Shown piece after piece: positions 11,601 to 58,816 of a stretch of 64,000 bases of DNA (position 1 is its first letter; each line of letters opens with the position of its first letter). This DNA comes from a bacterium. Lineage in GTDB: Bacteria > UBP15 > UBA6099. Made by a program: the position numbers and the translations under genes. The DNA lies in NCBI GenBank assembly GCA_029564595.1, contig JAKQPS010000157.1:1-64000 (forward strand), written 5' to 3'. The notes below the pieces were generated by a model. That model did no database searches, had not been told where the DNA came from, and saw nothing but the letters and a program-made list of their open reading frames with translations.

Positions 11601-13178
11601 ATGTACATGCTTATCGGTCTTGTTGTAGTGGCAGTTGTGCTTTTCGCGACTTTGCTCGCCGCGATGACAAGGTACCGGCGGTGTCCGTCGGACCAGATCA
11701 TGGTCGTTTATGGGAAAGTGGCGAAGGGTCAAACATCGAAGTGCATACATGGTGGCGCGTCGTTCGTCTGGCCGCTTTTTCAGGCTTGCGAGTATCTTGA
11801 CCTCACCCCGATGACAATCGACATCGGCCTGAAAAACGCGCTGTCGAATCAGAATATAAGGGTGGATGTCCCATCTCGATTCACCATAGGGATTTCCACC
11901 AATCCATCGGTTATGACTGTAGCAGCCGAACGCCTTCTCAGCATGAGCAGGGAGCAAATTGAGGAGAACGCCAAAGACATTATTTTCGGGCAACTCCGCG
12001 CGACTATAGCAACAATGAGCATTGAAGAGATCAATGCGAAACGTGAAAAGTTCGAAGAAGAAGTGATGAAAAATGTCGAGACGGAGCTAGAGAAGCTCGG
12101 CCTCAAGTTAATAAATGTGAATATCACCGATATTTCCGATGAATCTGGATACATTGAGGCGTTAGGGAAAAAAGCGGCTGCCGAGGCCATAAACAAAGCC
12201 AAGGTGGAAGTGGCCCAGCAGGAAAGAGACGGAAAAACAGGCGAAGCGAACGCGCAACAGCAGATGCGCGTAAATATCGCCAATGCCGAAAAAGACGGAT
12301 TGACCGGCGAGGCGAACGCGCAACAGCAGATGCGCGTCAATATTGCCAATGCCGAAAGAGACGGAAAAACCGGCGAAGCGAACGCGCAACAGCAGATGCG
12401 AGTTAACATTGCCGATGCTGAAAGAGACGGCAAAACCGGCGAGGCGAACGCGCAACAGCAGATGCGAGTTAACGTTGCAAAAGCCAACGCCGAAGCCATT
12501 AAAGGAGAGAACACCGCTAAAGTAGTCGAGGCCAACTCGCACGCTGACAGACGAGAAGCGGAAGCCGAAGCGGAGAGAAAAGCCGTCGCTGCGGAAAAAA
12601 CAAAAGCCGCCGAGGCCGCCACCCTAGCCTACATAGCCGAGAAAAAGGCGGAGGAAGCAAGGGCGGATAGAGAGAAGTCCACTCGAAAAGCCGATGTGAT
12701 TGTGCCGGCTGAGATAGAGAAAGAAAAATTAATCATAGAAGCGGAAGCGGCAAAGGAACAACAGACGCTCAAAGGACAGGGAGAAGGAGCGGAAATAAGA
12801 GAGCGGCTAAGCGGAGAAGCGGCTGGCATTCAGGAAATACTCAAAAAGAAAGCCGAGGGTTTCGCGGAGATGGTAAAAGCCGCGAACGGCGACGCGGAAA
12901 AAGCCGCCATGTTGCTCATAGTGGAGCAGTTGCCGGAAATCGTGAGAGCGCAGGCTGAGGCTATCAGCAAAATTAAATTCGACAAGATCGTAGTGTGGGA
13001 CAGCGGCAGCGGCAATGGCGGCGGCTCGACCGCGTCCAACTGGTTGGGCAGTTTCACGAAAATGTTGCCCGCGATGCACGATGTCTGCGAGATGGCCGGA
13101 GTCAGTCTTCCCGAATTTCTTGGAAAAATTAAAGAGCAGGAAAATTCGGAAAACAATCCGGACGCCCCTAAAGCATAA
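11601..13178 (+). CDS. Flotillin-like SPFH/band-7 protein (YqiK/FloA-type) with internal 22-aa tandem repeats
   Basis: 525 aa. N-terminal TM helix followed by an SPFH-like region (VVYGKV..., INVNITDISDESGYIEALGKKAAAEA), then an A/E/Q-rich coiled coil and a repeat block. Confidence 0.7.
   Translation: MYMLIGLVVVAVVLFATLLAAMTRYRRCPSDQIMVVYGKVAKGQTSKCIHGGASFVWPLFQACEYLDLTPMTIDIGLKNALSNQNIRVDVPSRFTIGISTNPSVMTVAAERLLSMSREQIEENAKDIIFGQLRATIATMSIEEINAKREKFEEEVMKNVETELEKLGLKLINVNITDISDESGYIEALGKKAAAEAINKAKVEVAQQERDGKTGEANAQQQMRVNIANAEKDGLTGEANAQQQMRVNIANAERDGKTGEANAQQQMRVNIADAERDGKTGEANAQQQMRVNVAKANAEAIKGENTAKVVEANSHADRREAEAEAERKAVAAEKTKAAEAATLAYIAEKKAEEARADREKSTRKADVIVPAEIEKEKLIIEAEAAKEQQTLKGQGEGAEIRERLSGEAAGIQEILKKKAEGFAEMVKAANGDAEKAAMLLIVEQLPEIVRAQAEAISKIKFDKIVVWDSGSGNGGGSTASNWLGSFTKMLPAMHDVCEMAGVSLPEFLGKIKEQENSENNPDAPKA
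12222..12485 (+). repeat. About 4 tandem copies of a 66-bp (22-aa, RDGKTGEANAQQQMRVNIANAE) intragenic repeat, nearly identical at nucleotide level
   Basis: Directly visible: GGCGAAGCGAACGCGCAACAGCAGATGCGCGT... repeated with few substitutions. Confidence 0.85.
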
Positions 13179-13334
13179 CCAAGTCTCGCTCTGAAAAATG
13201 GGTGAATGACAGATTATGCCTATTTATGATTTGTTTTTACCCATCTCACACCCGCAACGGGGTTGTGGGTGGCGCCCAGCGCAATGGGTAGAATCATCTA
13301 ATAATATGTATAATTGTGAAGGGGCATATTAGCA

Positions 13335-13730
13335 ATGTTATTCTTATTGTTAATATTTTCAGCGGGTGGTATCGAAGTCGCATACAATGTGGTAAAGAAA
13401 AGACATCGCGCGTTTAAAAATTTAGCATTTATAAATGTTCTTGTGGCAGCGTTCGTCATGATGCTCACAAGAGATGTGTCTGGTGAACATCTATCATTTA
13501 ATCTTTGCATAAATCCTATTGCTTTGATTGTTTTTGTTGCAAATCTCATTATCTTCAATAAATACTATTTATCGTTGGCGATCAAGACAAGAAAAGAAAA
13601 CATTGCGTTTGAGCAAAATCATCTTGATGGACAAGATGTAAATGTTGCCATAAAGGTTGTTGCGGCTATAAGCTATATTTTATTATATTTTGCCATTGTA
13701 TACATGATATTAACAGGAAACAATGGGTAG
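13335..13730 (+). CDS. Hypothetical small membrane protein (about 4 TM) in an AT-rich islet
   Basis: 131-aa hydrophobic ORF. The surrounding 13.2-13.86 kb is markedly AT-richer than its flanks. Confidence 0.4.
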   Translation: MLFLLLIFSAGGIEVAYNVVKKRHRAFKNLAFINVLVAAFVMMLTRDVSGEHLSFNLCINPIALIVFVANLIIFNKYYLSLAIKTRKENIAFEQNHLDGQDVNVAIKVVAAISYILLYFAIVYMILTGNNG

Positions 13731-13858
13731 TGACTGCGAGAAAAACGGACATTCGTCGCGAAAAGCTGGCACGGCGAGATGGTTAAAATCAAACAGCGCT
13801 TCGTATAAGGATATCGTTTTAAGAATTTGATAATTGAACAGTGTTGAGTGAATCCGGC

Positions 13859-15703
13859 TTAGTAATTTGATGTGAAGTCGATCATGAAGTCGTTGGTGTC
13901 TGCGAACCAGCGGGTGTTGATGCGCGTGCCGTAGAGGTCGTAGTCGACGTTGAAGTTTTTGGTGGAGAAATGGTTATTTTTGAGGCTGTAGATAAAGTCC
14001 GTGCGGAGTCTGCATTTTTTGTTGACGGTGTAATCAAGGCCGGAGGACAGGCTGCTGATGGTGGCTTCGCGGATGTCGTAAGTGGCTGACATGGCGGAAC
14101 TCCATTTAAGCCCTTTGGACTTGGAGACGTATAGCATGAGTTGTCGTTTGACGGTGGAGGAGCCTGTGTATCTGCTGTCAGTGAAATTATATCTGGCCTG
14201 AATCAACATACCCTGCCGGGGTCTGTGGCCTATGCGGGCGGAGGCGGACAGGCGGGCGCTGGGCCTGCCTTCGGTGTCGCCGCCAAGCCCGGTGGCTGTG
14301 TTCCAATCGATGCTGGTCTTTTTTGACAGCGCGATTGAAGGGCTGACGGCGGTGAGGGTGGTGTAAGCCGCCGTAACGGCGTCGGTATAGTCGTAGTTGT
14401 CCATTTTAATATGGGAGCTGACAGAGTAGCCGATGCCCCGCGTGTTGCCGTTGACGAACTTTCTGTTGCCGTCGAAGCTTACGAGGGCGTTCATAGTGGA
14501 CTGGCCGTAGTCGCCGTCTCCGGTTCTGCGGCCTGAGAGGTAGCCGTTAATTCTGGTTTTCTTGATGCCGCCCGCTGCTCCGAGCCGGAAACCTTTCGCC
14601 CCGGAAAGGTCGTAGTCCATCTGAAGGGTCTGCGACCTCATGCCGGCGGCGTAGCGCGACATGGACATTGTGTAGCCCCTGTCGCCGCCGAAGAGGTTGC
14701 GCATGTTGAACTGGCCGCTTGTCTGGGTGTTCATGCGGAAGGATTGGCGCAGGTCCGCCGAATAAGATTTCGAGTTGTCTCCGTGGTAGTTCATATCGAC
14801 GAAGCCTCTGAAGTCGCGGGCTTCTTTATAGCGCACGTTTGCGCCGACTTTCCAGTCCGCGTTCGAGCCGTAGCTGACGTTGCGGATGCGCCATTTGCCG
14901 GTGGTGTATTTTTTGCTGGTGTTGGTCCAGAAAGGGAGGGACATTACTTTGTTGCCTTTTACCCACATGGTGGCGCGCCACGCTTCATACTGGTCGCCGG
15001 GATAGACGCGCATGCGCGCGGCGGTCACGGCGTTCGCGGTGAGGTAAGGCTCTTCGTAGATGTAGACCGCGTCGCTCATTAGAGGTTCTTGAGCTGTTTC
15101 GTACAGTTCTTCGCCTACGAGATAAAAAGTTCTGACTCCGCTTTGGGTTTGAGTGAGGACGCCCGCCGCGCGGTCCAAGTCGAACCTGAGTTGGTCGCCG
15201 GAGAAAGAAGCGCCGTCCATGCCTGTGACCTGAGCTTCGACGCGCTGGTCGAGCAGGTCGCCGGTCTCTTCGATGTCCGTCAATATCGGGTTGGTCGATG
15301 GAGTCCCAGCGTTGCCAGTTGTTGTGTCTGCGGACTTCTTCATAGTGGAAGCGATGACGTTTCCTTCGGCGTAAAAGACGTGCGATTTAACGTCCACTCG
15401 TATCGAGTCGGCTTGAAAGCGAAGGTTGCCGTGAAGAAGCTCGACCTGTCCGTCGCAGTAAATCACTTTGCGGTCGATGTCGAACATAATGTAGTTTGCG
15501 GTGACGGTGTAGTGGAGTTTGAGGGCGCGCGCGGGCACGGCGGCGGACACAACCGCAAGCGCGGCCAGCGCCGATGCCGCCGCGAGCAATGTTTTTCTTT
15601 TCAGCAAATCAAGCACTATAAGACAACCTGCCGCATTAAACCCGAAAACAATCCGGGTACGCCAATATAACGCGCGGATTCCTCCGCAACCGTATTGTAT
15701 CAT
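13859..15703 (-). CDS. Outer-membrane beta-barrel protein, LptD/OstA-like (LPS-assembly)
   Basis: About 600 aa. N-terminal signal-like LLAAASALAALAVVSAAVPARA, an OstA-like N-terminal segment, and many amphipathic beta-strand motifs ending ...IDFTSNY. The true start is probably a non-ATG codon near 15640. Confidence 0.45.
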   Translation of the reverse strand: MIQYGCGGIRALYWRTRIVFGFNAAGCLIVLDLLKRKTLLAAASALAALAVVSAAVPARALKLHYTVTANYIMFDIDRKVIYCDGQVELLHGNLRFQADSIRVDVKSHVFYAEGNVIASTMKKSADTTTGNAGTPSTNPILTDIEETGDLLDQRVEAQVTGMDGASFSGDQLRFDLDRAAGVLTQTQSGVRTFYLVGEELYETAQEPLMSDAVYIYEEPYLTANAVTAARMRVYPGDQYEAWRATMWVKGNKVMSLPFWTNTSKKYTTGKWRIRNVSYGSNADWKVGANVRYKEARDFRGFVDMNYHGDNSKSYSADLRQSFRMNTQTSGQFNMRNLFGGDRGYTMSMSRYAAGMRSQTLQMDYDLSGAKGFRLGAAGGIKKTRINGYLSGRRTGDGDYGQSTMNALVSFDGNRKFVNGNTRGIGYSVSSHIKMDNYDYTDAVTAAYTTLTAVSPSIALSKKTSIDWNTATGLGGDTEGRPSARLSASARIGHRPRQGMLIQARYNFTDSRYTGSSTVKRQLMLYVSKSKGLKWSSAMSATYDIREATISSLSSGLDYTVNKKCRLRTDFIYSLKNNHFSTKNFNVDYDLYGTRINTRWFADTNDFMIDFTSNY

Positions 15704-15916: not shown

Positions 15917-17050
15917 TTAATATAACAGAGATTCCAGTTTTGAGACGATGCGGGGGGCGGCATGGCCGTCCCAGAGTTCGGGTATGCGCCCCTGTTTCCA
16001 GTCGCCGCGCAGTGCGGCGGCAGCGGCGGCGGAGATTTTTCCGGCGTCTGAGCCGACAAGGATGTTTGTGCCGATGTCAACAGTGACGGGGCGCTCGGTG
16101 TTTTCGCGGATTGTGGCGCACGGGACGCCCAGCCAAGTGGTCTCCTCCTGAATGCCGCCGGAATCGGTGAGGACGATTTTTGCGTTCATGGTGAGGGAGA
16201 GGAATTCCAGATATCCGAGAGGTTCCATGATGAAGATTTTTCCGGCGGGCGTGGAAGCGCCGTCCCAAGCGGCGAAATGGTCGTCCAGCCCGAACCGGCG
16301 TATGTTGTTGACGGTTCTGGGGTGAGCCGGGAAAAAGACGGGGGCTTCGGCGGCGGCGGCTTCGAGAGCGGAGATGATGCGGGAGAATGTGGCGGGGTCA
16401 TCCACGTTGGAGGGTCTGTGAAGGGTGAGGGCGGCGTAATCGCCGGAGAAATCGCCGAGAGGGCGGGCCGATTCGCCGTTGCGCACGCGGCGCGCGTTTT
16501 CCGCCAGAGTGTCAATCATGACGTTGCCGACGAAGAAAATGTTGTCTTCCGCGACGCCTTCTCGCAGGAGGTTGTCGCGTCCGCTAGGCTCTGTGATGAA
16601 GAGGAAAGAGGAGATCGAGTCTGTGAGGACGCGGTTGATTTCTTCTGGCATGGAGCGGTCGAAGCTGCGGAGGCCGGCTTCCACGTGTGCGACCGGGATC
16701 ATGAGTTTTGCGGACACGAGGGAGCAGGCGAGGGTGGAGTTGACGTCGCCGACCACTAGAACGAGGTCGGGTTTTAATTCGAGGACGGCTTTTTCGAAGG
16801 CGAGCATGACGGCGGCGGTCTGGGCCGCGTGGCTTCCGGAGCCGACTTCGAGGAAAACGTCGGGCCGGGGGATGTTCAACTCGTCGAAGAAACTCTGAGA
16901 CATGTTGTGGTCGTAGTGCTGTCCGGTGTGGACGAGGATGGGGCGCAGGGAGGGGCTGGCGGCCATAGCGCGCATAATCGGGGCCACTTTTACAAAGTTC
17001 GGTCTCGCCCCCGCGACGATGAAGACTTTCTTTTTTTTCGACTCAGTCAT
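15917..17050 (-). CDS. wecB: UDP-N-acetylglucosamine 2-epimerase (non-hydrolysing)
   Basis: KKVFIVAGARPNFVKVAPIMRA...HTGQHYDHNMSQSFFDELNIP is the canonical WecB/MnaA N-terminus. The ORF track extends to a TTG at 17080; the ATG starts at 17062 or 17050 are more likely. Confidence 0.8.
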   Translation of the reverse strand: MTESKKKKVFIVAGARPNFVKVAPIMRAMAASPSLRPILVHTGQHYDHNMSQSFFDELNIPRPDVFLEVGSGSHAAQTAAVMLAFEKAVLELKPDLVLVVGDVNSTLACSLVSAKLMIPVAHVEAGLRSFDRSMPEEINRVLTDSISSFLFITEPSGRDNLLREGVAEDNIFFVGNVMIDTLAENARRVRNGESARPLGDFSGDYAALTLHRPSNVDDPATFSRIISALEAAAAEAPVFFPAHPRTVNNIRRFGLDDHFAAWDGASTPAGKIFIMEPLGYLEFLSLTMNAKIVLTDSGGIQEETTWLGVPCATIRENTERPVTVDIGTNILVGSDAGKISAAAAAALRGDWKQGRIPELWDGHAAPRIVSKLESLLY

Positions 17051-17076
17051 GATTTCATCCATGCCGGCCTCCAATT

Positions 17077-17715
17077 TCAACGAGGAAGGCTCCGCTTCTG
17101 AGCGTTTTTGGCGGCTGCCAGTATTTCATCGGTAAACTTCTTGAAATTAGGACATTTGTCACGCACGGTATCAGGCGAGAGTTTTTTAAAAAGATTGACG
17201 CCGTCAATAGTCTTTTTATAGCTGTAATTTTTTTTGTTTTTTCTAAAAAGTTCCTTGAGCAGTTTTGCCGGAGGGGTGTCGAAGTCAACTGTTTCCGGGT
17301 TGTCGCAGCAACCGGGCAGCTTGATCTCGTTGGGGAATATTTTAGGGTCGCTGAGCAACCATGCTTCCAGTTCATGAACCGCGAAATGCTGGTGGAATTT
17401 AGGCCTGCATTCTTTTGGCAAAGACTCTATGATTTTTTTTCTTGCGAAATTGGTTTTTTCATCGACAGTGTTTCCGCCTTTGCACTTTTCCGGCAATCCA
17501 TAGAGGTCGAGCAATCCGAAGATGGCGATTACTTCGCTATTATCAAGATGTAATTGAGATTTTTTGCCGGCGCGTTTTAAATAATCGCCGCAACCATCAA
17601 AAACAATAGGTTTGACGCTTATCTTTTTGTCCAGTTGAGAATCCAACCACTTTTTAAGAAAAACTTGAGTTATTATGTTTTCAGTTTTGCCTTCGACGAA
17701 AAGAAGTATTTTCAT
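17077..17715 (-). CDS. DUF4276/RloB-like small protein (putative TOPRIM-like nuclease partner of the upstream ATPase)
   Basis: 212 aa. N-terminal KILLFVEGKTE motif (resembling the ILVCEGEKTE of RloB/OLD-TOPRIM) and HELEAWLL. AT-rich codon usage. The start ATG lies 3 nt after the ATPase stop codon. Confidence 0.5.
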   Translation of the reverse strand: MKILLFVEGKTENIITQVFLKKWLDSQLDKKISVKPIVFDGCGDYLKRAGKKSQLHLDNSEVIAIFGLLDLYGLPEKCKGGNTVDEKTNFARKKIIESLPKECRPKFHQHFAVHELEAWLLSDPKIFPNEIKLPGCCDNPETVDFDTPPAKLLKELFRKNKKNYSYKKTIDGVNLFKKLSPDTVRDKCPNFKKFTDEILAAAKNAQKRSLPR

Positions 17716-17718
17716 GGA

Positions 17719-18957
17719 TCATCCGCCGATTTCTCTATCGAGCCATAGTCTGCCGAGGGTGTATTCCTCCAGCCACTTGGAAAGGGAATCGCGGTCAAGT
17801 CTTTTCGCAGTGGTCGCGCCGTCTTCTTTTTCCACGACCACGACTGATTCCGGCATGTCGGAGAAGGCGCTTAAAAGTTCGGGAGAGTGAGTGGAAACAA
17901 TAAGTTGAGTTCTGTTTGACGCGTCTTTGATAAGCTCCGCGATGATGCCGAGCATAGAAGGGTGCATTCCAAGTTCAGGTTCGTCGATACAGATTATCGG
18001 CGGGGGTTCAGGGGAGAGAAGAATCGCGGAAAGCATCAGGAAAAGGATGGTTCCGTCAGACAGATCGGCGGGTGAAAGCTCGCGGTTGAGCGTTTTCGAG
18101 CGCCATTTCATATAGACTCTGCCGTTTTCGAGAGGCGGGAATGTCAATTCTTCAAAGTCGTCGCCGAAAGCCGCTTCGAGAGTGTTGTTAAGTTGTTCTT
18201 CGAACTCTTTATTGCCGGTGTAAAGAGTGTGAAGGACGGCGATGAGGTTGTCGCCGTTCGATTCCAACACCTTTTCCGATCTCGTGACAGTCGAATGTCT
18301 AGCTTCTGCTTCCGGGCCATGATTTAGGTTTCGGTAAAATGAACAGTCATTAAAAAAGTTGATGAACCTATATATTTGTAATTCAGTATAATTTTTCCAT
18401 CCATTTTTGATTGAATCCATATTAAAAAACATGGATTCGCTATCTTTAAAAATATCGAACACAGCCGCTGGAATATCGCTATTAATTTCTTTCGTGAAAT
18501 ATTCTTTTCCATCTCTGTTAATAATCGTGCCTGTGTAATTGGATAAATCATCATCATTGGCAATATTCTCGACATGGAGTTTTTCTAATTCAATGCCATA
18601 TTCGCTTGAGGCTCTCAATTGTTCAAGTCTTAAACTATAAACATATCGTCTTTTTACTAAATTGGATGCGTTTTCTTCCGGGTTTTCGTTGAAGCCAAAA
18701 CGATGAGAGCGTATTGTTGCCTCAAAACCGATTTCCTTTGCGGTTCCATTCCAAAGAATGGGGATCATGCCGCCGTGTTTTTTCATAATGGCGTCGCGAA
18801 GTTTGCCGGAGACGGCGTCGGAAAGAAGTTCAAGGGCGCTGATTATGTTGCTTTTGCCGCTGGAGTTGGGGCCGATGAGGATGTTTACGGGCATAAGGTC
18901 TAGGTTGAGATTTTTTAAAGATCTGAAACCTTCGACTTTGAAATTTTTGATAATCAT
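17719..18957 (-). CDS. AAA_21-type (ABC/SMC-like) ATPase
   Basis: Walker A GPNSSGKSN, ABC-signature-like LSDGT, Walker B IICIDEPELGMHP and H-loop VSTHSP are all present. An AGGAGA RBS sits 8 nt upstream of the ATG at 18957. AT-rich composition. Confidence 0.7.
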   Translation of the reverse strand: MIIKNFKVEGFRSLKNLNLDLMPVNILIGPNSSGKSNIISALELLSDAVSGKLRDAIMKKHGGMIPILWNGTAKEIGFEATIRSHRFGFNENPEENASNLVKRRYVYSLRLEQLRASSEYGIELEKLHVENIANDDDLSNYTGTIINRDGKEYFTKEINSDIPAAVFDIFKDSESMFFNMDSIKNGWKNYTELQIYRFINFFNDCSFYRNLNHGPEAEARHSTVTRSEKVLESNGDNLIAVLHTLYTGNKEFEEQLNNTLEAAFGDDFEELTFPPLENGRVYMKWRSKTLNRELSPADLSDGTILFLMLSAILLSPEPPPIICIDEPELGMHPSMLGIIAELIKDASNRTQLIVSTHSPELLSAFSDMPESVVVVEKEDGATTAKRLDRDSLSKWLEEYTLGRLWLDREIGG

Positions 18958-19089
18958 GAACAAATCTCCTAGAGCCGGCTAAAAGCCTGACAACTTATAT
19001 GTGAATTTTACATTTTTCCGACGGATAGCGCCATCGGAGGGGAAAAAGAGGGAGCGGAGCGCGGGCGGCGAGGGTGTGCCCGGATTCTT

Positions 19090-45831: not shown

Positions 45832-46877
45832 GCTTTGTCCTCGGTTTCCGCGCGCAACGGCAGTTCGATGCGGAACTTCGCGCCTTCGCCTTTTCTGCCG
45901 CCAGCGGTTATTTTCCCTTCGTGGTCGTCCATTATTCTTCTTGCCACATACAGACCGACGCCGGTTCCGATGCCTCTCGCTTTTTTCGAGAAGAATAGGT
46001 CGAAAACTCTCGGCAGGTCCGCCTCATCGATGCCCGCGCCCGTGTCGGAAAAAGTCATCACTGCCGCGACATCGGTTTTTTCCAGCGCTATGTTCAATTC
46101 CCCTCCGTCCGGCATGGAGTCCAGAGCGTTGATCATTATATTGATGAACACTTGCCGCATTGCGTCTTTATCGAACCGCGCCTCGATTTTCTCCAAGCCC
46201 GGCGGACAGTCTATCGATATGCGGACATTCTGTTTGACCGCCTTAGGCTCGATTAGAGTGACGGCTCCTCTGATTTCTGCGGCGAGGTCGGAGTCGGTTT
46301 TCATTGGGGACCGGGGCCGCGCCAGTTCTAGCAGGCCGTTGGTGACCATTCGTATCTGGTTTATAGCCTCGCGTATCACCCGCGTGTAGGCGTCGATTTT
46401 CGGATCGTCGCCTGCTCTTGCCGATATCAGGTCGATATAGTTTGAAATTCCGAACAGAGGATTGTTTATCTCGTGAGCCACGCTGGCGGCCATCTTTCCC
46501 GCGCTGGCAAGTTTTTCCATCTCGACCAGCCTGCCCTGCGTGCGCTCTATGAGATGCATCATATTATTGAAAGTCTCGCCGATTTCCGTCATCGGGTCGT
46601 TGCCTATTCCCGCGAGGTACACTTCGCATTTCCGGCAGTCGAGAACGTCGGCCAGCCGGCAGCACCCGCCTTCCTCGGAGAACGTTCCCATTATCTGCCA
46701 GCAACGGACGCCTTCCTTGTCTCTCAACTGGCACCCTTCGGGTCGGGGGCAGTCGATCATCATCCAGCATGTTTTCACGCCGGGGTTGTCGAACCGGACT
46801 TCGGTTCCGCCCGCGAACGCGCGACGCATCAGCGTCACCAGCGTTTCGTTGACCTCGGCGAGTTTTTTCGGTTCCAT
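45828..46877 (-). CDS. Cytoplasmic sensor histidine kinase with N-terminal Cys-rich (8 Cys) domain
   Basis: HisKA SVAHEINNPL, HATPase (NIMINALDSM, GTGVGL), and no TM segment. The N-terminus carries C-x4-C-x6-C-x9-C...CC-x8-C-x2-C. The 4-nt overlap with the regulator gene indicates an operon. Confidence 0.8.
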   Translation of the reverse strand: MEPKKLAEVNETLVTLMRRAFAGGTEVRFDNPGVKTCWMMIDCPRPEGCQLRDKEGVRCWQIMGTFSEEGGCCRLADVLDCRKCEVYLAGIGNDPMTEIGETFNNMMHLIERTQGRLVEMEKLASAGKMAASVAHEINNPLFGISNYIDLISARAGDDPKIDAYTRVIREAINQIRMVTNGLLELARPRSPMKTDSDLAAEIRGAVTLIEPKAVKQNVRISIDCPPGLEKIEARFDKDAMRQVFINIMINALDSMPDGGELNIALEKTDVAAVMTFSDTGAGIDEADLPRVFDLFFSKKARGIGTGVGLYVARRIMDDHEGKITAGGRKGEGAKFRIELPLRAETEDKA

Positions 46878-47158
46878 TTTTCCCTATGCGTTCCGCCGCG
46901 CAGTTCGTTTCAGCGCGTGGTTGCCTTCCTAATAAAAGCCATTGATTCGTTGATTTTGCATAATAAGGTGAAAGCTCTTTGTTGTCAAGAAAGAGGTCTT
47001 TCGGCCTAGATTTCTATGGTAAATCAAAAAAATGTAAAATTTTATTAACATAATGATAATATATTTTATTATAAAATATTATTGCCGCAACAGGATCCTA
47101 AAAAATGTTTTTTTTGTGTCATGTTTTATGAAACCCACTGAACGGGTAAAAGCTAAAC

Positions 47159-47692
47159 GTGAACAATGAAAATGACATAAATCACACAACTGAAAAACTG
47201 AGGGAAGTGCAGGCGGAATTCGTCAACCCGTTTCTGAGCGCGGTCGGATATGCGCTGAAGACAATGGGCCGGGCTTCCGCCAACAAGGGGATGGTCGCCC
47301 TCGAACGCGCCAACACCTTCAGGGGCGACGCTCAGATTCTCCTGCGCGTGGACGGCACGATCAAGGGCTTTGTCATCCTTGAAATGCCGGAGGCGCTCGC
47401 CCGCAAATTCGTCTCTATCTTCCTTTTCGGTCTGCCGATAAAGGAGCTTGACGCTATGGCGAGGAACTCTCTGGAGGAATTCTCCATCAGGATTTCCGAG
47501 ATGGCTCGCAGGCAGCTCATCGACAGAGGCTATCTTGCCAGCGTGTCGTCTTTCGTGAATTTTAACAAACCGCTCCATTTCTCAGGAGACAAGCAGTTTA
47601 TAGTCGTCCCAATCGACACCGAACACGGCGATTTTAAAGTGTTTTTCAATGTGATGAAGGCGGAGCTGATGGATCAGGCGTCCGTCAATTGA
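47159..47692 (+). CDS. CheX/CheC-like chemotaxis phosphatase-family protein
   Basis: 177 aa. The N-terminal EFVNPFLSAVGYALKTM resembles the CheX N-terminal helix. Stand-alone gene. Assignment is tentative. Confidence 0.4.
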   Translation: MNNENDINHTTEKLREVQAEFVNPFLSAVGYALKTMGRASANKGMVALERANTFRGDAQILLRVDGTIKGFVILEMPEALARKFVSIFLFGLPIKELDAMARNSLEEFSIRISEMARRQLIDRGYLASVSSFVNFNKPLHFSGDKQFIVVPIDTEHGDFKVFFNVMKAELMDQASVN

Positions 47693-50561: not shown

Positions 50562-51791
50562 TCACTCGAATACTTTCTCATCCGTCAGGTGAGAGTTGAC
50601 AGCGTCTTCTTCTACGTCGCGCCCTGCGGGGCCGGATTTCTCAAGCTCTTTATAATATTCGTGCTGAATGAGCGCGTTCATTATCTGGTTCGTGCCCGTC
50701 CATATCATGGCGAGCCGCGAATCGCGAAGCAGCCTCTCGATGGGATAGACGTTCGTGTAGCCTATGCCGCCCATAATCTGCATGGAGTTGTTGATGGCCA
50801 GCCAAGAGTTCTCCGTGCCGACCTTTTTCGCCTCTGAGACGAGCCTGCGGGCGTCCTGTCCGGAATCGACTTTTCGGGCAGCGGCGTACACCAATCCGCG
50901 CGCCGCGTCGAGAGCGGACAGTGAATCGGCCAGCATGAAATTGACCGCCTGAAACTTCATGATTGCGCGCCCGAAGGCTTTGCGCTGAGTGGAGTACCGC
51001 GCCGCCACTTCGACGCACGCGCGCCCAGTGCCGACCGCTCCGGCGGCGCTCGTCAGCCGCTCCGGTATCATCATCTTGTTGAATATCATTCCGCCGCCGT
51101 TGAGCGGGCCGACCAAGTTCTCGGCGGGCACTTTCACGTCCTTGAAAATTATCCTGCCCGTACCGCTTCCCCTGCTGCCCATCAATCCGTACACTTCCTG
51201 CACCTCGACCCCGAAGTCCCGCTCGACTATGAAGACGCTTATCGATTCGTGCGCCGGAGCGTCGAACGCCGTCCTAACGTAAACGAGGAAATAGTCCGCT
51301 CCTTTTGCGCCGACTATGAATCTTTTCTGACCGTTGAGAATGTAATAGTCGCCTTTCTTTTCCGCTTTAGTGGTCGCGCCGAAGAAGTCTGAGCCTCCGC
51401 GCGGCTCGGTGAGAGCCTCGGCGCATATCATCTTGCCGGCGAGCGTCGGCTTGAGATATTTCTCTTTCTGGGCGTCCGTGCCGAACAGCGCGATGGCGTC
51501 CCCGATGATGCTCGGAAGCGAATAGAGGCAGGCCAGAGAAGTGCCCAGAGTCCCGAACTCTTCGAGAACGGCCACTTCCGCGCTCCAGCCCAGACCCCTG
51601 CCTCCCCATTCCTTCGGGAACCGCAGGCCGAGCAGGTTTGCTGCGCCAAGTTTCTGGACATATTCGTAAGGATACTCTATCTCGTCGCGGTCCATCGATT
51701 TGAGAAGCTCGTTGGGGACCTCTTTCTTTATAAAATCCACAGCTTCCTGCCGCAGTTTTTTCTCCTCGTCGTTAAGCATGAAATCGAACAT
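50562..51791 (-). CDS. Acyl-CoA dehydrogenase
   Basis: 409 aa with a typical ACAD N-terminal helical, middle beta, and C-terminal helical pattern ([30 protein letters not shown]). Confidence 0.8.
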
Positions 51792-52002
51792 GGCTCTCCG
51801 CCTCCCTTTATTTGTCGAGCTTATTATATAACGACAGCCTTTAATAAACGAGAAGGAAGTTGTTGAACCCGGATTCTCCGATAGAGCCGGTGAACCGGGC
51901 CGATTGTTTATAGCGGCGAACTTCTTTGTTGCTGTCGTTGCCGTAGCATTTCGAGCCTAATTTATCACATATCGCGGCGGGAATCGGAGTTCCTGCTACA
52001 CA

Positions 52003-52076
52003 AAAAATGCGCCTTGTGTCTAGCATTTTATCAGTTATGAACAATCGCTCCTGAGTCCTAAAGATGGATTCGGACT
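52003..52076. repeat. Copy D of the repeat family (AAAAATGCGCCTTG...TGAACAATCGCTCC + hairpin CCTGAGTCC-TAAAGAT-GGATTCGGA), at the left edge of the 52-56 kb AT-rich island
   Basis: Aligned to copies A and B. The substitutions in the stem are mostly compensatory or G·U-compatible. Confidence 0.55.
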
Positions 52077-52289
52077 GAAACAAAAAGCAAAAAAAGCGCC
52101 ATTTTTTCGTTTTTGGGCGTTTTTTAAAAAATCCCAAAAATAAGTTTTGGCTTTATTGCTCGAATATTTTTTCAAAAAGGCCCTTAGGTAGTTTAAAACT
52201 TTTTTACTCTTTTCTATAATAGTAATATTTCGGCATATAAAAAACAGTTTTTTTTGTCAAGATGTGAATAAAACAATGGAGGCATTATC

Positions 52290-52958
52290 ATGGCAAAACT
52301 GGGAAAAAATGACTTGGAAAAAATTATGAAATCATTATCAAAGAGAAGGCCCGTATTCCATAGAGAAGCAGATTTTCAACACGAACTTGCATTTGAATTG
52401 CGTGAACATTTTAAAGATGCAAGTATCCGTTTGGAATATCCCCAAAAGCCAATTAAAGAGAAGCCAATTGAAGAGAAAGGTGAAAAGAGGAAATATATAG
52501 ACATAGTTGTTTTGTTTAAGGATGAAAAAATTGGCATAGAAGTAAAGTATTTATTAAAAGGAATGAACAAAAACAAATTAGCTCAACCGATCTATGATGA
52601 TCATGACTGCACTAAAAAACCTGAACCTTTCTACGTTTCAGGACAAGGAGGGCAGAATAAGAGAGGCTATGCATTTGTTGAAGACATCCACAAATTAGAA
52701 AATGCAGTATGCTCTTATGGTTATTTGATAATACTTACAAATGACGCAATATATAGTAAAAAAGCTAGAAATAAAAATGCTAAATGCGCAAAATACAGAT
52801 TCCATGAAGAAGCTGTGCTTGAAGGTACATTTAACTATGGGAGTCAAGCAATTACATTAGTAAGAGAATATAAAGACTTCAAATGGGAAGAATACAATGC
52901 AAAAGACAGCAAATTTGAAGATTTCAAATACCTTATTGTCCCAATAGGCAAAAAATAG
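52290..52958 (+). CDS. Hypothetical protein with PD-(D/E)xK nuclease-like motif
   Basis: 222 aa, AT-rich. The E...D...ExK arrangement is READFQHELAFEL ... KYIDIVVLF ... IGIEVKYL. A -10-like TATAAT and a GGAGG RBS lie upstream. Confidence 0.45.
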   Translation: MAKLGKNDLEKIMKSLSKRRPVFHREADFQHELAFELREHFKDASIRLEYPQKPIKEKPIEEKGEKRKYIDIVVLFKDEKIGIEVKYLLKGMNKNKLAQPIYDDHDCTKKPEPFYVSGQGGQNKRGYAFVEDIHKLENAVCSYGYLIILTNDAIYSKKARNKNAKCAKYRFHEEAVLEGTFNYGSQAITLVREYKDFKWEEYNAKDSKFEDFKYLIVPIGKK

Positions 52959-53054
52959 CATTAAAAGCATCGCGATAATTCGATTCTAAAACCCATCGGC
53001 AATCTTGTCACACCCTGTGACTATTATTTCTATTGGAGCAAAGGAGCCTTTAAT

Positions 53055-53972
53055 ATGCACAATACGCTTGAAAAGCTAGTGGAGGAACTCAGGTTTTATG
53101 ATGCGAGAAAAAAAGATGTGTCGGCGATTTCGAATGCAATAATGTTTGAAAGGGGAGAATTCATTTTCAAAGGGCGGCAAATCAGCGTTGCCGACACCGC
53201 GCTGAGACAACTGCTTGGCTATTGCGGAATCCCTCCGAAGTTTTTTAAAGAGACGCTTTCCGACTCAGAAAAGACTCTTTTGTTTAACAGGCTCTACAGA
53301 AAAAAAGACGGCAACGCGATGCGGATGTATAGGTTCGATTGCGACGAACTTTACGGCGTGGTCAGCGACAGATACAGAAAGATTGACAACATCGAGTTGA
53401 TTCCTGTTCTGGAAGGAATGGCGGGAAAGGGTATAGCTATGGAGGCTGTCAACATAACGCTCAATCCTGACCATACAAAGATTAGGCTTGTTCCATTGGA
53501 TTATTATCATGGAGAAACTGCGCCGATGATAGAATTCACTAATAGCGAAAACGGTCTTGGCTCAATGAAAGTATGGGCCGGTGTTTATCGTGCAGTGTGC
53601 TCTAACGGCTTAATGGTCGAGATAGAAAGCCACACACGTACGAAATGGCGGCATTTATGCAATACAATTTTTGATTTGCCGGATTTTAACGCTGTTCTTT
53701 CTGTGTCCATTGATTACATGAAACGACTTGATAATTCAAAAGTCGTCTATCTCGGCGCGAAGGATAAAGAAAAGCATTTGCGCAGTGTTTTCTCGGAATT
53801 CGGAAAAGACGCGGCAGACAAAGTGGTTGAAGTAGCGCGAAGCGAATACAGGAACGGCGAGACACTACATGATGTGGTTAACTCGATTACACGCGCGGCG
53901 CAGCATTATCAGTCAAGACAACGCACTGAAATGGAGCGTTTTGCTACGACAATACTTGACTCGAGAAACTGA
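53055..53972 (+). CDS. DUF932-like (phage/plasmid/ICE-associated) protein
   Basis: 305 aa. FTNSENGLGSMKVWAGVYRAVCSNGLMV matches the NSxDGSxA...R.VCxNG core characteristic of DUF932 (TIGR03299-type) proteins. Confidence 0.5.
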   Translation: MHNTLEKLVEELRFYDARKKDVSAISNAIMFERGEFIFKGRQISVADTALRQLLGYCGIPPKFFKETLSDSEKTLLFNRLYRKKDGNAMRMYRFDCDELYGVVSDRYRKIDNIELIPVLEGMAGKGIAMEAVNITLNPDHTKIRLVPLDYYHGETAPMIEFTNSENGLGSMKVWAGVYRAVCSNGLMVEIESHTRTKWRHLCNTIFDLPDFNAVLSVSIDYMKRLDNSKVVYLGAKDKEKHLRSVFSEFGKDAADKVVEVARSEYRNGETLHDVVNSITRAAQHYQSRQRTEMERFATTILDSRN

Positions 53973-53978
53973 TAATAT

Positions 53979-54965
53979 TTGATCATAGTAAAATACATTG
54001 AGGGAGATAATATGATGATAGAGAATTGGCGCATGAGAAAGAAGCAAACAATAGCCGTCAATGGTTTAATTGAAGAAATACTAGCAGCGGTATTAAACAG
54101 TGATGATGTGGGAAGTATTAAAAAGGCAAATGAGACTGAATCAGATGATCGCAATATCAATATAATTGAAACAGGGTTTCCTGAATTAGATAAAGCATCC
54201 GTCGTCCTAAAACCATCCAACCTTGTTCTTATTGCTGCGAAGAACGGAATGAAAGCGACGAGTCTTGCGCTGTCAATAGCAAAACACATTGCGATAGAGC
54301 AAAATAGACGAATAGGGATTATCTGCCTAAAAGAAACCCCTGAAATGATTGCTGTCCGACTATTATGCAATATCGCAGACGTTAATCCGACAAGCGTAAT
54401 GCATGGGTGGCTAAGCACAGAAGAATATTATGATATAGAAAAAGCAATGAACGCCTTAAATAACGCATCGATAAACATATCGACAGTATCTATTAATAGC
54501 AACATATTAATAAATGCAACAAAAAACTTAAAAAAACAACATGATGTTGAGTGCATCGTTTTAGAAGCCTCGCGAATTTCAGCAAGACGTTGTATGCCGA
54601 TAATGAAAGCAATGAAAGAAGTAGCAGAGATAGACGATATACCGATCATGGTGGCCATGCGTCTGCCTGCAAATAAGAAGAGTGGCAAAAGGAAAAGAGC
54701 TTACATAGAAGACACAAGTAAATGGCAAACCATACTCGATATAGCTGATCTCTTTATGTCCGTTTACTGCGAAGATCGTATCCACTTGTTGAAAGCAGAT
54801 GCAAATTACAATATTTTGGCTATACAAGAAGCCGAGATGACGGAACTGAGAGTAAAAGCCAAAATTGCTATAAATAAGAACGGAAGCGATTGCGAAGTAA
54901 CGACTAATTTAGCTTATAATCACAATTTCGAACGTTTTGAAAGATATTACGCGACTAATGACTAG
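53979..54965 (+). CDS. DnaB C-terminal (RecA-fold) domain protein with degenerate Walker motifs
   Basis: TGFPELDKASVVLKPSNLVLIAAKNGMKATSLALSIA aligns with the DnaB [37 protein letters not shown], but the P-loop is altered (GMKAT instead of MGKT) and Walker B is IVLEAS rather than IDYLQ. There is no DnaB N-terminal domain. Confidence 0.5.
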   Translation: MIIVKYIEGDNMMIENWRMRKKQTIAVNGLIEEILAAVLNSDDVGSIKKANETESDDRNINIIETGFPELDKASVVLKPSNLVLIAAKNGMKATSLALSIAKHIAIEQNRRIGIICLKETPEMIAVRLLCNIADVNPTSVMHGWLSTEEYYDIEKAMNALNNASINISTVSINSNILINATKNLKKQHDVECIVLEASRISARRCMPIMKAMKEVAEIDDIPIMVAMRLPANKKSGKRKRAYIEDTSKWQTILDIADLFMSVYCEDRIHLLKADANYNILAIQEAEMTELRVKAKIAINKNGSDCEVTTNLAYNHNFERFERYYATND

Positions 54966-55103
54966 CAATATAAGCGCAATAACGAAGGCAATGTCGAGGC
55001 ATGTAAAGTAAAATGATTACTGTATGACGTGAAATACAATTGTTAGATGCGCAACCGTATTTAATATCTATTGCGAATGTAACTGCAAAGCTAACTATTC
55101 AAT

Positions 55104-55901
55104 TTGGCCATTATTTGGCAGACAGGAGACTGTATGCAAAACACAGATTACATGTATCATGTGGATTATGCTCATGAATGTATTGAGAATGAACTGTACG
55201 AAGAAGCACTTAAACATTTATATCTTGTCTTGGAAATTGAACCGTCGTGTAAATATGCATACTTATCCATCGGCAATATATATGGAATACAGAAGGAGTA
55301 TGATAAGGCATTGGGTATATTTAAACAAGCGCTGGAGATGGATCCGCATGACGCATTAGCTTATGTCGGATTAGGAATACTGCACGAAAGGATGAATAAA
55401 ACCGAAAGAGCAAAAAAATATTATGCTCAAGCTATGCTTGTGGACAGAAGCTGTTCATATGCAATTATGTTATATGGCGACGTATGCGTGATGCTTGATC
55501 AAATCAATGAAGCGATAAATGCTTACAAGAAAGTGATTGAGATCGACAATACTGACATAGATGCGTATGCAACACTAGCTTCTGTATCCCGCAAATACGG
55601 CTACATAGAATTAGCTGAAAAAACAAGCAAAGAGCTATTGGAATTAACCCCTATTGATGCTAGTGACTATATTGATATGGGAAATTGTTGTTTAGATTTG
55701 GAAGATTATAGAAAGGCTATAACATATTTTGATAAAACGCTCGAAATGAAACCACATGAATCATCAGCTTATTACAATCTAACTATTGCGTATCTCGAAA
55801 TAGGAGAAAAGGCCGCTGCATGGGATTGTCACAGGAGATCGCTATTCATTGATAGAGAATTGGCGAAAGAGATAAAAGAATTAATTCGAAAATATCGTTA
55901 G
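55104..55901 (+). CDS. TPR-repeat protein
   Basis: 265 aa. Repeated 34-aa units with the A/Y/L pattern (YAYLSIGNIY...AL..FKQALEMDP; ALAYVGLGIL; AYATLASV; AYYNLTIAYLE). Confidence 0.6.
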   Translation: MAIIWQTGDCMQNTDYMYHVDYAHECIENELYEEALKHLYLVLEIEPSCKYAYLSIGNIYGIQKEYDKALGIFKQALEMDPHDALAYVGLGILHERMNKTERAKKYYAQAMLVDRSCSYAIMLYGDVCVMLDQINEAINAYKKVIEIDNTDIDAYATLASVSRKYGYIELAEKTSKELLELTPIDASDYIDMGNCCLDLEDYRKAITYFDKTLEMKPHESSAYYNLTIAYLEIGEKAAAWDCHRRSLFIDRELAKEIKELIRKYR

Positions 55902-56147
55902 TGGCGCGTGTAAGAATGAAGCAAATATGCGAAGAATATTAAAAGCAAGAAAACATTTGGCATCATATTTCGCGCGACGCTATAAGTTGCCAATTAATTG
56001 CTGGCACGACTGAGAGAGACGAAGAAATATGAGCCAAGTAAATTATCACAATTTGCTTTAGCCGCAGAATTAGCTTGATAGAGTTGTAATTATGATTAGT
56101 GGTAATTATTATTATGCCCTGACTCGGAAGGGAATATTGCGGGACTG

Positions 56148-58175
56148 ATGTCAAGATTGAAGGGACTGAACGAGCAGCAGAGGGAGGCCGCGAGGCATGT
56201 GGACGGGCCGATAGCTGTCGTGGCGGGCGCGGGGACGGGCAAGACGCGCACGATCGCGCACCGCGCCGCCTACCTGATCGAGGAGCGGGGCGTAGACCCC
56301 TCCGGCATTCTGGCTGTGACGTTCACGAACAAAGCGGCGCGCGAGATGCGCGAGCGCATCTCCAAAATGATAGGCTCGGAGACCTGCGCCCTGATGACGG
56401 TGCGCACCATCCATTCTCTGTGCTCGATGATTCTCAGGGAGGATTTTTTAGCGCTCGGACGCTCCGGGGAATTCACTATCTGCGATTCCTCGGACCAGAC
56501 GTCGCTCGTGCGCCGCGCGCTTGTCGAGAACGGGTTCGACCCCAAGAAGAACGACCCGGTCAGTCTGTTGTGGCGCATAGGGGCGGTGAAAAACGCGTTC
56601 CCGGATGTCGATAGGGAAGAGTTCGAAGACCCGGTTTTCGCGCGCGTGTGGTCCGCATACAACAAGGCCCTCGAAAGCGCCAACTCGGTGGATTTCGACG
56701 ACCTGCTGATATTCGCCCTCAAACTTCTCGGAAAGAAAGAGATAAGGACTAAATACCAGAAGCGGTTTCGCTATATCATGGTGGACGAGTATCAGGACGT
56801 CAACGGCTGCCAGTACGAGATAATAAAACGGCTCGCGGCCGGGCACGGCAACCTGTACGTGGTTGGGGACGACGACCAGAGCATATACGGGTGGCGCGGC
56901 GCGCAGGTGAAGAACATCCTGAACTTCGAACAGGACTTCAAGAAGGCGCGCGTGGTCAAGCTCGAGCGCAACTACCGCTCCACCCCGCAGATTCTGGAAG
57001 CCGCCAACGCGGTGATAAAGAACAACGTCGAACGCAGGGACAAGAAACTCTGGACTTCCGAAAAGAGCGGCGACCTCGTCGGCATAATTGAATCGGCGGA
57101 TGAAACGGAAGAGGCCGCCCGCGTAGTGGATTACATCATAGCCGAAAAATACTCGAAGGGGCTGAAGTACGGCGACTTCGCGATTCTCTACCGCACCAAC
57201 GCGCAGTCCCGCTTGTTCGAGGAAAAACTTATGCGGCACGCGGTCTCTTACATAATGGTCGGAGGAACAAGGTTCTTCGAGAGGCGGGAGATAAAGGACG
57301 TGACGGCGTACCTGCGGATGGTCGCGAACCCGGAGGACGAAACTGCGGCGCTCCGGGCGGCGGCTTTCCCGCCGCGAGGCATCGGAAAGACGTCGCTGGA
57401 AAAGATAAGGGAACGCGCGTTCGAGGAGAAGAAGCCGATTTTGGCGGCTATGAGGGAGGCGGCGGGAGCCGGTTGGCTGAATGCGAAAGCGGCGGAAGGC
57501 CTGCGCGGGTTCGTCGCGCTGTGCGACGCTCTGGACGAAATCCGCCGGCGGCTGCCGAAACAGCCTTTGGAGATGGCGAAGAAACTCGTCGGTTCGGTCA
57601 ACTTCAAGGCGGGGTACGAGCGGGCCGGAGCGGATAAAAACGAGGCCGCCAGAAGGATGGACAACATCGCCGAATTCGTCAACGCCGTCGAGGAATACCA
57701 GAGGAACGAGCCGGGCTCCTCTCTCGAAGGTTTTCTCGAAAACATCGCGTTGATGACGGACGAGCGCGAGACAGAGCTTGAACAGAAAGAGGACTCCGTC
57801 ACGCTGATGACGCTGCATTCCGCAAAAGGGCTGGAATTCAAATATGTCGTGTTGGTGGGAGCCGAGGAGGGTTTCACCCCGCACGAAAGGTCCACTTTCG
57901 AGTGGGAGCTTGAGGAGGAGCGCAGGCTTTTTTATGTGGGGATGACCCGCGCGAGAAAGAAGCTTCTGATATCATACGCCGGGAGCCGCCGCAGGTACGG
58001 CGAGTCGCTTTTGCGCAAACCCAGCCCGTATGTGGCGGAGATACCGCCGGCGCTCCTGACAAGCGAGGACAACGAGGAAATCGAGCGGGCGCGCGAGGCC
58101 GCCGCGGAATCTATTTCCGAAGGCCACAGGGCCAGAATGCGCGCCATGCTTTTTTCCGACGGAGGCGAATCATGA
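56148..58175 (+). CDS. UvrD/PcrA/Rep-family ATP-dependent DNA helicase
   Basis: [29 protein letters not shown] (motifs Q/I), VDEYQDVN (II), and YRST...QILEAAN. Confidence 0.85.
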
Positions 58176-58585
58176 AATTTCACACAGCTTACCTTTGGTT
58201 TGAAACAAAAAAGAGGCGGGAGTATATCAACATCACCCGCGAAGTTCAGTCCGAACTCAACAAGAGCGGGATACGGGAAGGGATGGCGCTGGTGTCGGCA
58301 ATGCATATCACGGCGGGTGTTTACGTTAACGACGCCGAGAGCGGGCTTATCGACGACATTGACGAGTGGTTGGACAAAGTGGCTCCGTTCGGACCGGATT
58401 ACCGTCATCACCGGGCGGGCGAGGACAATGGAGACGCGCATCTCAAGAGCCTTCTCATCGGGCATGAAGTGATTATCCCGGTGACGGACTGGAAGCTGGA
58501 GCTTGGCCCGTGGCAGCAGGTGTACTACGCCGAGTTCGACGGGAAACGCAAGAAACGGGTCATAATAAAAATCATGGGAATATGA
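58172..58585 (+). CDS. yjbQ: YjbQ/UPF0047 family (secondary thiamine-phosphate synthase-like) protein
   Basis: 137 aa. [12 protein letters not shown]...[39 protein letters not shown] matches the conserved YjbQ core. Confidence 0.7.
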
Positions 58586-58663: not shown

Positions 58664-58735
<72 letters not shown>

Positions 58736-58744
58736 TGAAAAAAA

Positions 58745-58816
58745 GGGTGGTTAGTTCAGAGGAAGAACGCTTCCTTGACACGGAAGAGGTCACAGGTTCA
58801 AGTCCTGTACCACCCA
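58745..58816 (+). tRNA. tRNA-Val (anticodon GAC)
   Basis: Manual fold: acceptor GGGTGGT/ACCACCC, D-stem GTTC/GAAC, anticodon stem CTTCC/GGAAG with loop TTGACAC, and T-arm ACAGG-TTCAAGT-CCTGT. Confidence 0.75.

Follow-up and report, generated by a model that had tools for sequence, protein, structure and literature searches.

Proteins of the DUF932 family occur on phages, plasmids and integrative and conjugative elements (ICEs), and make up a large, uncharacterised group without a solved structure. YfjQ and YafZ, encoded by the CP4-type elements of Escherichia coli, are DUF932/DUF945/TIGR03299-type 'phage/plasmid-like' proteins. The literature found under DUF932, PF06067, TIGR03299, YfjQ/YafZ and DnaB-like defence held no functional data; one preprint reports phage-selected mutations in the DUF932 gene of an integrated plasmid. 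Stand-alone DnaB_C proteins have been described beside candidate type XI-like retron reverse transcriptases, at loci that are unvalidated (bioRxiv 10.64898/2026.05.14.725207). Here we describe a chromosomal locus in which a DUF932 gene is followed by a gene for a stand-alone DnaB_C protein. It lies in a 64,000-nucleotide stretch, referred to as the window, from a bacterium of the GTDB lineage UBP15/UBA6099 (positions 1 to 64,000 of contig JAKQPS010000157.1, assembly GCA_029564595.1). Comparison with relatives gives good support for an AT-rich and recombining cassette held at one fixed chromosomal site and centred on a rare DUF932-subfamily protein. We propose, tentatively and with a little less than even confidence, that this laterally derived cassette acts as a conflict module, probably an anti-phage one.

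The cassette is made up of four genes, each preceded by a strong Shine-Dalgarno sequence. The starts of the open reading frames (ORFs) were chosen by Shine-Dalgarno support and by the gene calls of other assemblies.

51868..56097, no strand: AT-rich variable segment, GC 0.38 against 0.58 in the flanks, where identity to sister genomes breaks at both ends
52290-52958, + strand: g1, a predicted nuclease of 222 amino acids (aa) with a PD-(D/E)xK fold, its N-terminal core conserved and its C-terminal half hypervariable
53055-53972, + strand: g2, a 305-aa DUF932 protein (PF06067 match), the conserved core of the cassette
54012-54965, + strand: g3, a 317-aa DnaB linker and C-terminal domain (PF03796), a pseudo-helicase, hypervariable
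55134-55901, + strand: g4, a 255-aa tetratricopeptide repeat (TPR) protein (TPR_1), an accessory part of the cassette

These genes, in the order g1 to g4, fill a segment whose content of guanine plus cytosine (GC) differs sharply from that of its surroundings. In 400-nucleotide windows, GC was 0.31-0.45 from ~51.85 to ~56.1 kb, compared with 0.57-0.62 outside, and it was back at 0.56-0.63 on the right, from uvrD onward. The mean was 0.381 for the segment and 0.578 and 0.573 for the two 5-kb flanks, and no other AT-rich stretch of the window is as deep or as long; smaller patches with a GC of 0.39-0.45 were noted at 13001-14000, 17001-19000 and 46800-47400. A preliminary description of the sequence had reported the sharp drop and the recovery at uvrD, as we find, but had put the GC of the host at ~65%, for which we measured ~0.58. 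It had also read the four + strand genes as coding for a nuclease, a DUF932 protein, a degenerate DnaB_C protein and a TPR protein, assignments on which Pfam, motif and fold evidence agree.

The site, between an acyl-CoA dehydrogenase gene and uvrD, is occupied in several closely related uncultured anaerobes: a cassette was seen there in five of the five related assemblies retrieved, and the exact DUF932 protein of the window and its near relatives were found on metagenomic contigs syntenic with the window. Across the relatives, the DUF932 protein is 81-94% identical at the amino acid level, the nuclease 58-74%, the pseudo-DnaB protein 30-35%, and the TPR protein 42% or absent, while UvrD is 97-99% conserved. 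For one set of sister loci (L003-L006), nucleotide identity to the window was 94.0% up to position 51867 and 95.1% from 56098, and patchy inside. The cassette of these loci, with a GC of 0.385 against 0.58, carries a g1 of 205 aa, a DUF932 gene and a DnaB_C gene (with a shorter g3 call in L003), and has no TPR gene. The flank genes are separated from those of the window by a synonymous divergence (dS) of 0.12-0.26 and a nonsynonymous divergence (dN) of at most 0.01, and g2 by a dS of 0.31 and a dN of 0.06 (89% aa identity; dN/dS ~0.2). For g1, alignable as DNA in its 5´ half only, the values were 1.24 and 0.35 (58% aa identity), and for g3 they were ~1.4 and 0.67 (33%); between haplotypes overall, g3 shows 30-35% aa identity and a saturated dS, of 1.4-1.9. 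A third haplotype (L092/L097) encodes a UvrD 97%, a DUF932 protein 81%, a pseudo-DnaB protein 30-34% and a TPR protein 42-43% identical to those of the window, in a cassette that is also low in GC (L092). A further relative (L001) is 96% identical to the window across g2-g4 into uvrD; its g3 is 98% identical, and its g1 just 74% at aligned positions. The two haplotypes with readable flanks, those of the window and of L003-L006, are both AT-rich, and the ORFs are intact in all haplotypes except for a stop codon in the TPR gene of L001; together with the Shine-Dalgarno sequences and the dN/dS of g2, this indicates that the genes are being maintained.

Since g1 and g3 have diverged far more at synonymous sites (dS above 1.2) than the flanks have, the nuclease and pseudo-DnaB genes must, by this measure, have been exchanged for old, divergent alleles, and not merely have evolved fast in place. 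The alignments show a DUF932 gene that diverges roughly with its host, next to a C-terminal half of g1 and a whole pseudo-DnaB (and TPR) stretch for which deeply divergent alleles have been substituted. That the locus is ancestral to the clade, and that its DUF932 gene, stable by comparison, sits amid mosaic and hypervariable content, is well supported by these comparisons. Swapping of the DUF932 gene's neighbours for very different versions is what is typically seen in genes of phage defence or of other conflicts. In its fixed site between housekeeping genes and its deeply divergent alleles, the locus resembles variable defence hotspots and allelic specificity genes such as hsdS of type I restriction-modification (R-M) systems. 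With g1, which joins a conserved catalytic core to a variable half, and with its repeat-protein partners, it also recalls defence designs that pair a nuclease with a TPR sensor. It differs from both in that it has no methyltransferase, no signal transduction ATPase with numerous domains (STAND) and no component modelled in PADLOC, and in that its constant gene codes for a DUF.

These relatives also bear on the origins that were first suggested for the island. An ICE or prophage remnant had been considered; we rejected it, as relatives with 94-95% identical flanks have a cassette in exactly this place, and as att repeats, and mobility genes in the ~7-10 kb of flank covered, are lacking. Nor is the segment a recent insertion, for in close relatives the site holds a cassette that is just as rich in AT. 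If, instead, all four genes were found syntenic and at host-like GC in close relatives, the region was to be taken as ancestral and not inserted. The synteny is there, and the host-like GC is not (0.385 against 0.58). With the expectation only half borne out, one haplotype lacking the TPR gene and g1 and g3 diverging at synonymous sites well beyond the flanks, exchange of genes at the site is the explanation to which we are led. The suggestion that the island could be a novel defence or anti-defence cassette survives these comparisons and is strengthened by them.

The product of g2 matches PF06067 with 48 bits (cutoff 23) over model positions 3-214 of 227, and in predicted fold it resembles many DUF932 and TIGR03299 models of phages, with Foldseek E-values down to 1e-18. 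The match to TIGR03299 (20.3 bits, cutoff 110.7) falls below the NCBIfam cutoff. The g2 profile matched nothing among PDB sequences, and no fold relative of DUF932 was found among solved structures. By profile threshold and fold, g2 is like the DUF932/DUF945/TIGR03299 proteins of phages, plasmids and ICEs; it is unlike them in that it falls in a small, separate subfamily, at most 31% identical to the phage and plasmid copies, and is chromosomal without a surrounding element. This subfamily was not found in IMG/VR, among INPHARED phages or among PLSDB plasmids, where the DUF932 proteins present are only 23-31% identical. It is rare, with ~20 clusters among 5.8 billion proteins.

No significant Pfam match was obtained for g1, nor did its profile match any PDB sequence. 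Four residues, E26, D71, E84 and K86 (E26...D71...E84-x-K86), are invariant across 20 members of the g1 family, and in the g1 model these catalytic residues map to helix H26-40 and strands E69-76 and E79-88. A Glu on the first core helix is thereby followed by an Asp and a (D/E)-x-K on consecutive beta strands, as in the PD-(D/E)xK superfamily, within a restriction-endonuclease-like alpha/beta fold, and the fold matches of g1 are almost all PD-(D/E)xK nucleases of restriction type. The assignment of g1 to this superfamily, as a predicted nuclease, holds on both motif and model. The g1 gene adjoins the DUF932 gene in every haplotype of the lineage with a readable left side. A type II R-M system was considered and rejected, as the segment, searched from 51.8 to 56.1 kb, holds no methyltransferase ORF or domain. 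We also rejected a Gabija-like pairing with UvrD. Like Gabija (GajA + GajB), the locus has a nuclease gene near an adjacent uvrD that strongly matches GajB models. However, it does so as any UvrD would, and the gene is conserved, has host GC and is followed by housekeeping genes; in addition, g1 has no GajA match, GajA is absent and other DUF932 cassettes lack UvrD.

The g3 protein matches DnaB_C (PF03796) with 84.8 bits (E = 8e-24) over model positions 2-254 of 255, so that, as in replicative DnaB, a linker helix and a C-terminal RecA-like domain align over the full model. Unlike replicative DnaB, it has no N-terminal domain (PF00772), ~170 N-terminal residues being missing in alignment with true DnaB, and its ATPase motifs are lost. 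At the Walker A position g3 has AAKNGMKATS; the catalytic-Glu motif is LKET, compared with LEMS in DnaB, and Walker B is VLEASR, compared with IDYLQL. DTSKWQ stands at the Arg finger position, and the allele of the window has lost both the SQLSR sensor and the Arg finger. Degeneration extends to the sister alleles: the motifs other than Walker A/catalytic Glu are lost in every g3 allele, and GKT is kept only in L093. The family shares an LP motif in place of SQLSR and a conserved C-terminal RFE. Against TIGR00665, g3 scores 85 bits (cutoff 385). With the N-terminal domain missing and the ATPase motifs altered, g3 cannot, as far as its sequence tells, be a replicative helicase. When 1.84 billion representatives were scanned exhaustively with HMMER, only ~5 relatives came out closer to g3 than true DnaB, and four of the five known family members (the window, L004 and L092 types, and L093) adjoin a DUF932 gene of this subfamily. 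The type XI-like retron loci mentioned above are similar in having a separate DnaB_C protein as a recurrent accessory of a putative defence locus (bioRxiv 10.64898/2026.05.14.725207); the present cassette differs in having no reverse transcriptase or non-coding RNA, and in the DnaB_C protein's partner, which is DUF932.

Four stretches of g4 match TPR_1 (E = 2e-27, 94 bits), and several other TPR models match as well. A 29-nucleotide direct repeat (54016-54044 / 55850-55878; 25/29 identical, with a 16-nucleotide exact core, TGATAGAGAATTGGCG) has one copy at the start of g3 and the other near the end of g4, bracketing the two genes. Any exact 16-mer repeat at all occurred in only 8/1000 Markov shuffles, and in L001 just the second copy is exact. 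The repeat could have been left behind by an exchange of cassettes, or could be due to chance.

Elsewhere, members of the subfamily have other neighbours. In L093 the genes stand in reverse order and are followed by one for an ankyrin protein. In L007 and L008 the DUF932 gene is followed by a Cas4-like PDDEXK_1 nuclease, with type I R-M genes a few kb away, and such a nuclease is next to DUF932 in L101 as well. Two small conserved ORFs, of ~149 and 64 aa and lacking a Pfam or NCBIfam match, lie upstream of DUF932 in the Cas4-like version (L007, L008), an upstream small ORF is also found in L099 and L106, and the two may be further components of this variant. A large TPR protein follows DUF932 in L011, L103 and L104. 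Beside the DUF932-TPR pair of L011 is a divergent WYL regulator, and a neighbour in L103 is a PLD nuclease that is similar to type IV restriction enzymes. A cluster of Amidoligase_2, GATase_6 and GGACT genes (10919-14049 of L011) lies ~7 kb from the WYL-DUF932-TPR genes in a ~10-kb AT-rich stretch, so that a mobile or defence island of larger size seems likely there. Positions 1-8559 of L104 encode an integrase, a helix-turn-helix protein like those of insertion sequences (IS), a 525-aa ankyrin protein, a ClpP-like protease, the DUF932 protein, a 531-aa TPR protein and a papain-family protease; this protease-rich context may hint at a different type of effector. Distant viral DUF932 genes were seen near ParB-like, ligase and integrase genes and one DnaB gene, without a mechanistic lead.

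The surroundings of the cassette, together with its small non-coding features, are the following.

50562-51791, - strand: acyl-CoA dehydrogenase gene, left neighbour
51865..52076, no strand: copy of a repeat like a miniature inverted-repeat transposable element (MITE), ~210 bp, missing from L003-L006 and outside the cassette
52192..52220, + strand: promoter-like site TTTAAA-17-TATAAT upstream of g1 (consensus scan, 10/12 matches)
53007..53031, + strand: terminator-like hairpin and T-run between g1 and g2 (consensus scan)
56148-58175, + strand: uvrD (uvrD/pcrA), right neighbour

Both flanks consist of housekeeping genes, with aldehyde:ferredoxin oxidoreductase and acyl-CoA dehydrogenase genes on the left and uvrD/pcrA, yjbQ, tRNA-Cys, tRNA-Val and infC-rpmI-rplT on the right. 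Comparison with a sister genome gave a dS of 0.53 (93% aa identity) for yjbQ (58172-58585), 0.12 for uvrD and 0.26 for the acyl-CoA dehydrogenase gene. In agreement with the preliminary description, the syntenic gene tables list no integrase, relaxase or transposase in ~7-10 kb of flank and there is no tRNA at the junction; the only tRNAs found, those for Cys and Val (58664-58816), are 2.5 kb off, beyond uvrD and yjbQ. No direct or att repeats were found flanking the segment, and the cassette contains no primase, origin-binding or integrase gene.

A hairpin repeat had been taken to bound the island on the left. The repeat copy is indeed there, at 51865-52076, but we rejected it as the island boundary: it is a lineage-specific insertion of ~210 bp that sister genomes lack, and the intergenic sequence of L003-L006 is otherwise continuous across that point. 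It is probably a MITE-like element inserted in the intergenic region of this lineage, to judge from the alignment. Partial copies lie at ~1-153 (84.5% over 71 nucleotides) and 476-546 of the window, copies of the family are ~76-85% identical to each other, and the first is cut by the window start. The fold of the copy at 51865-52076 is no more stable than that of shuffled sequence (z = -1.4), and a minus-strand 98-aa ORF at 51841-52137, within the repeat insertion, was treated as spurious. Promoter-like sites are no commoner in the region than in shuffles, so the one upstream of g1 is weak evidence. A candidate S-adenosylmethionine/S-adenosylhomocysteine (SAM/SAH) riboswitch at 53002-53040 was rejected; it scored 23 bits (cutoff 40), coincides with the terminator-like hairpin and is regarded as a chance match.

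Several lines lead us to a conflict module, most likely for anti-phage defence: the alleles at one fixed site have diverged deeply; the nuclease combines an active site that is intact with a half that varies; its partners are repeat proteins and a pseudo-enzyme; and the gene neighbourhoods are modular but recur, with neighbours of defence type elsewhere. In such a module, g1 would be the DNA-cutting effector, its variable half setting recognition; the ATPase-dead DnaB_C protein and the TPR protein would act as exchangeable sensors or adaptors, binding to an invader or a replication protein; and DUF932 would be the constant coupling or enzymatic core. A number of observations weigh against this proposal. 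In agreement with the preliminary description, in which no named defence module was recognised, g1, g2 and g3 have no match in PADLOC-DB v2.0.0 at E <= 0.1, and g4 has generic TPR matches only. No empty site was found in a relative among the five related assemblies. The TPR gene is missing in L003-L006 and so is dispensable, and in the 96%-identical L001 it is split by a stop at L001 3480-3484 (~55.72 kb of the window) into ORFs of 196 and 67 aa, which makes it either a pseudogene or an assembly error, the assembly (GCA_046128295.1) being very fragmented. Phages, plasmids and ICEs are where the wider DUF932 family is typically found, such that a role on the side of the element, in anti-defence or establishment, is an equally natural prior. 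The remaining points concern g1, which may be an independent gene given the terminator-like hairpin that parts it from g2 and the change of its allele in L001 independently of g3 and g4. They are what a composite locus would explain, in which g1 encodes a nuclease of restriction type that stands by itself (a modification-dependent enzyme like those of type IV, for instance) and DUF932 and the pseudo-DnaB protein, with or without the TPR protein, are a separate module in a shared, recombination-prone hotspot. Distant homologues of g1, at 28-36% identity, are indeed solitary genes in housekeeping contexts with no DUF932 nearby, and the lack of a methyltransferase gene in the island fits as well. 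We nonetheless consider this explanation doubtful, since g1 stands beside DUF932 in each haplotype where its side can be read, and the Cas4-like PD-(D/E)xK nuclease directly downstream of DUF932 in other lineages suggests a recurring requirement for a nuclease.

A module stranded from the early or leading region of an ICE, plasmid or phage, and serving that element in anti-defence, establishment or addiction, strikes us as unlikely. The spread of DUF932, DUF945 and TIGR03299 proteins in such elements would be in keeping with it, as would the AT-rich composition, the company of the distant viral DUF932 genes, and the integrase and IS-like gene near the L104 copy. Against these stand the mobility genes and att site missing from the ~7-10 kb of flank covered, the occupation of the site, with intact ORFs, in several related genomes whose flanks are ~0.25 apart in dS, and the absence of the subfamily from the phage, viral and plasmid collections; moreover, anti-defence genes would not be expected to last in a chromosome without their element. 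That the locus is what is left of the replication module of a phage or plasmid, in decay and no longer functional, its DnaB-like gene having lost its motifs by drift, seems very improbable. The degenerate ATPase motifs of g3, its shorter call in L003 and the broken TPR gene of L001 could be read as decay, but four deeply diverged g3 alleles retain full-length ORFs and strong ribosome-binding sites, the LP motif replacing SQLSR and the C-terminal RFE point to a new function that is under selection, and the dN/dS of g2 is low. Nor does the cassette have the primase, origin-binding or integrase gene of a replication module, and the N-terminal domain of DnaB is cleanly absent, not fragmented.

The conflict-module reading can be taken further, to a version that we hold to be a long shot. 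The DUF932 subfamily would then be the core of an unrecognised modular defence family, and the dead DnaB domain a decoy of the host's replicative helicase. By itself or together with the TPR adaptor, this decoy would sense proteins that hijack replication, such as the helicase loaders of phages, and so license the PD-(D/E)xK nuclease. The g3 alleles would, in that case, owe their extreme divergence to an arms race.

Were the decoy version true, it would provide a first function for DUF932, a large family found in phages, plasmids and ICEs. As a defence system, the cassette would represent a new architecture, possibly with a helicase-decoy principle of sensing; if it is not one, it still shows that an AT-rich, integrase-free island can be an old, site-fixed, recombining locus and not a fresh insertion. 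In either case, the locus offers a compact natural experiment in which the DUF932 gene is kept while its neighbours are swapped among near-identical genomes, pointing to the proteins that work together and to the parts that face an adversary.

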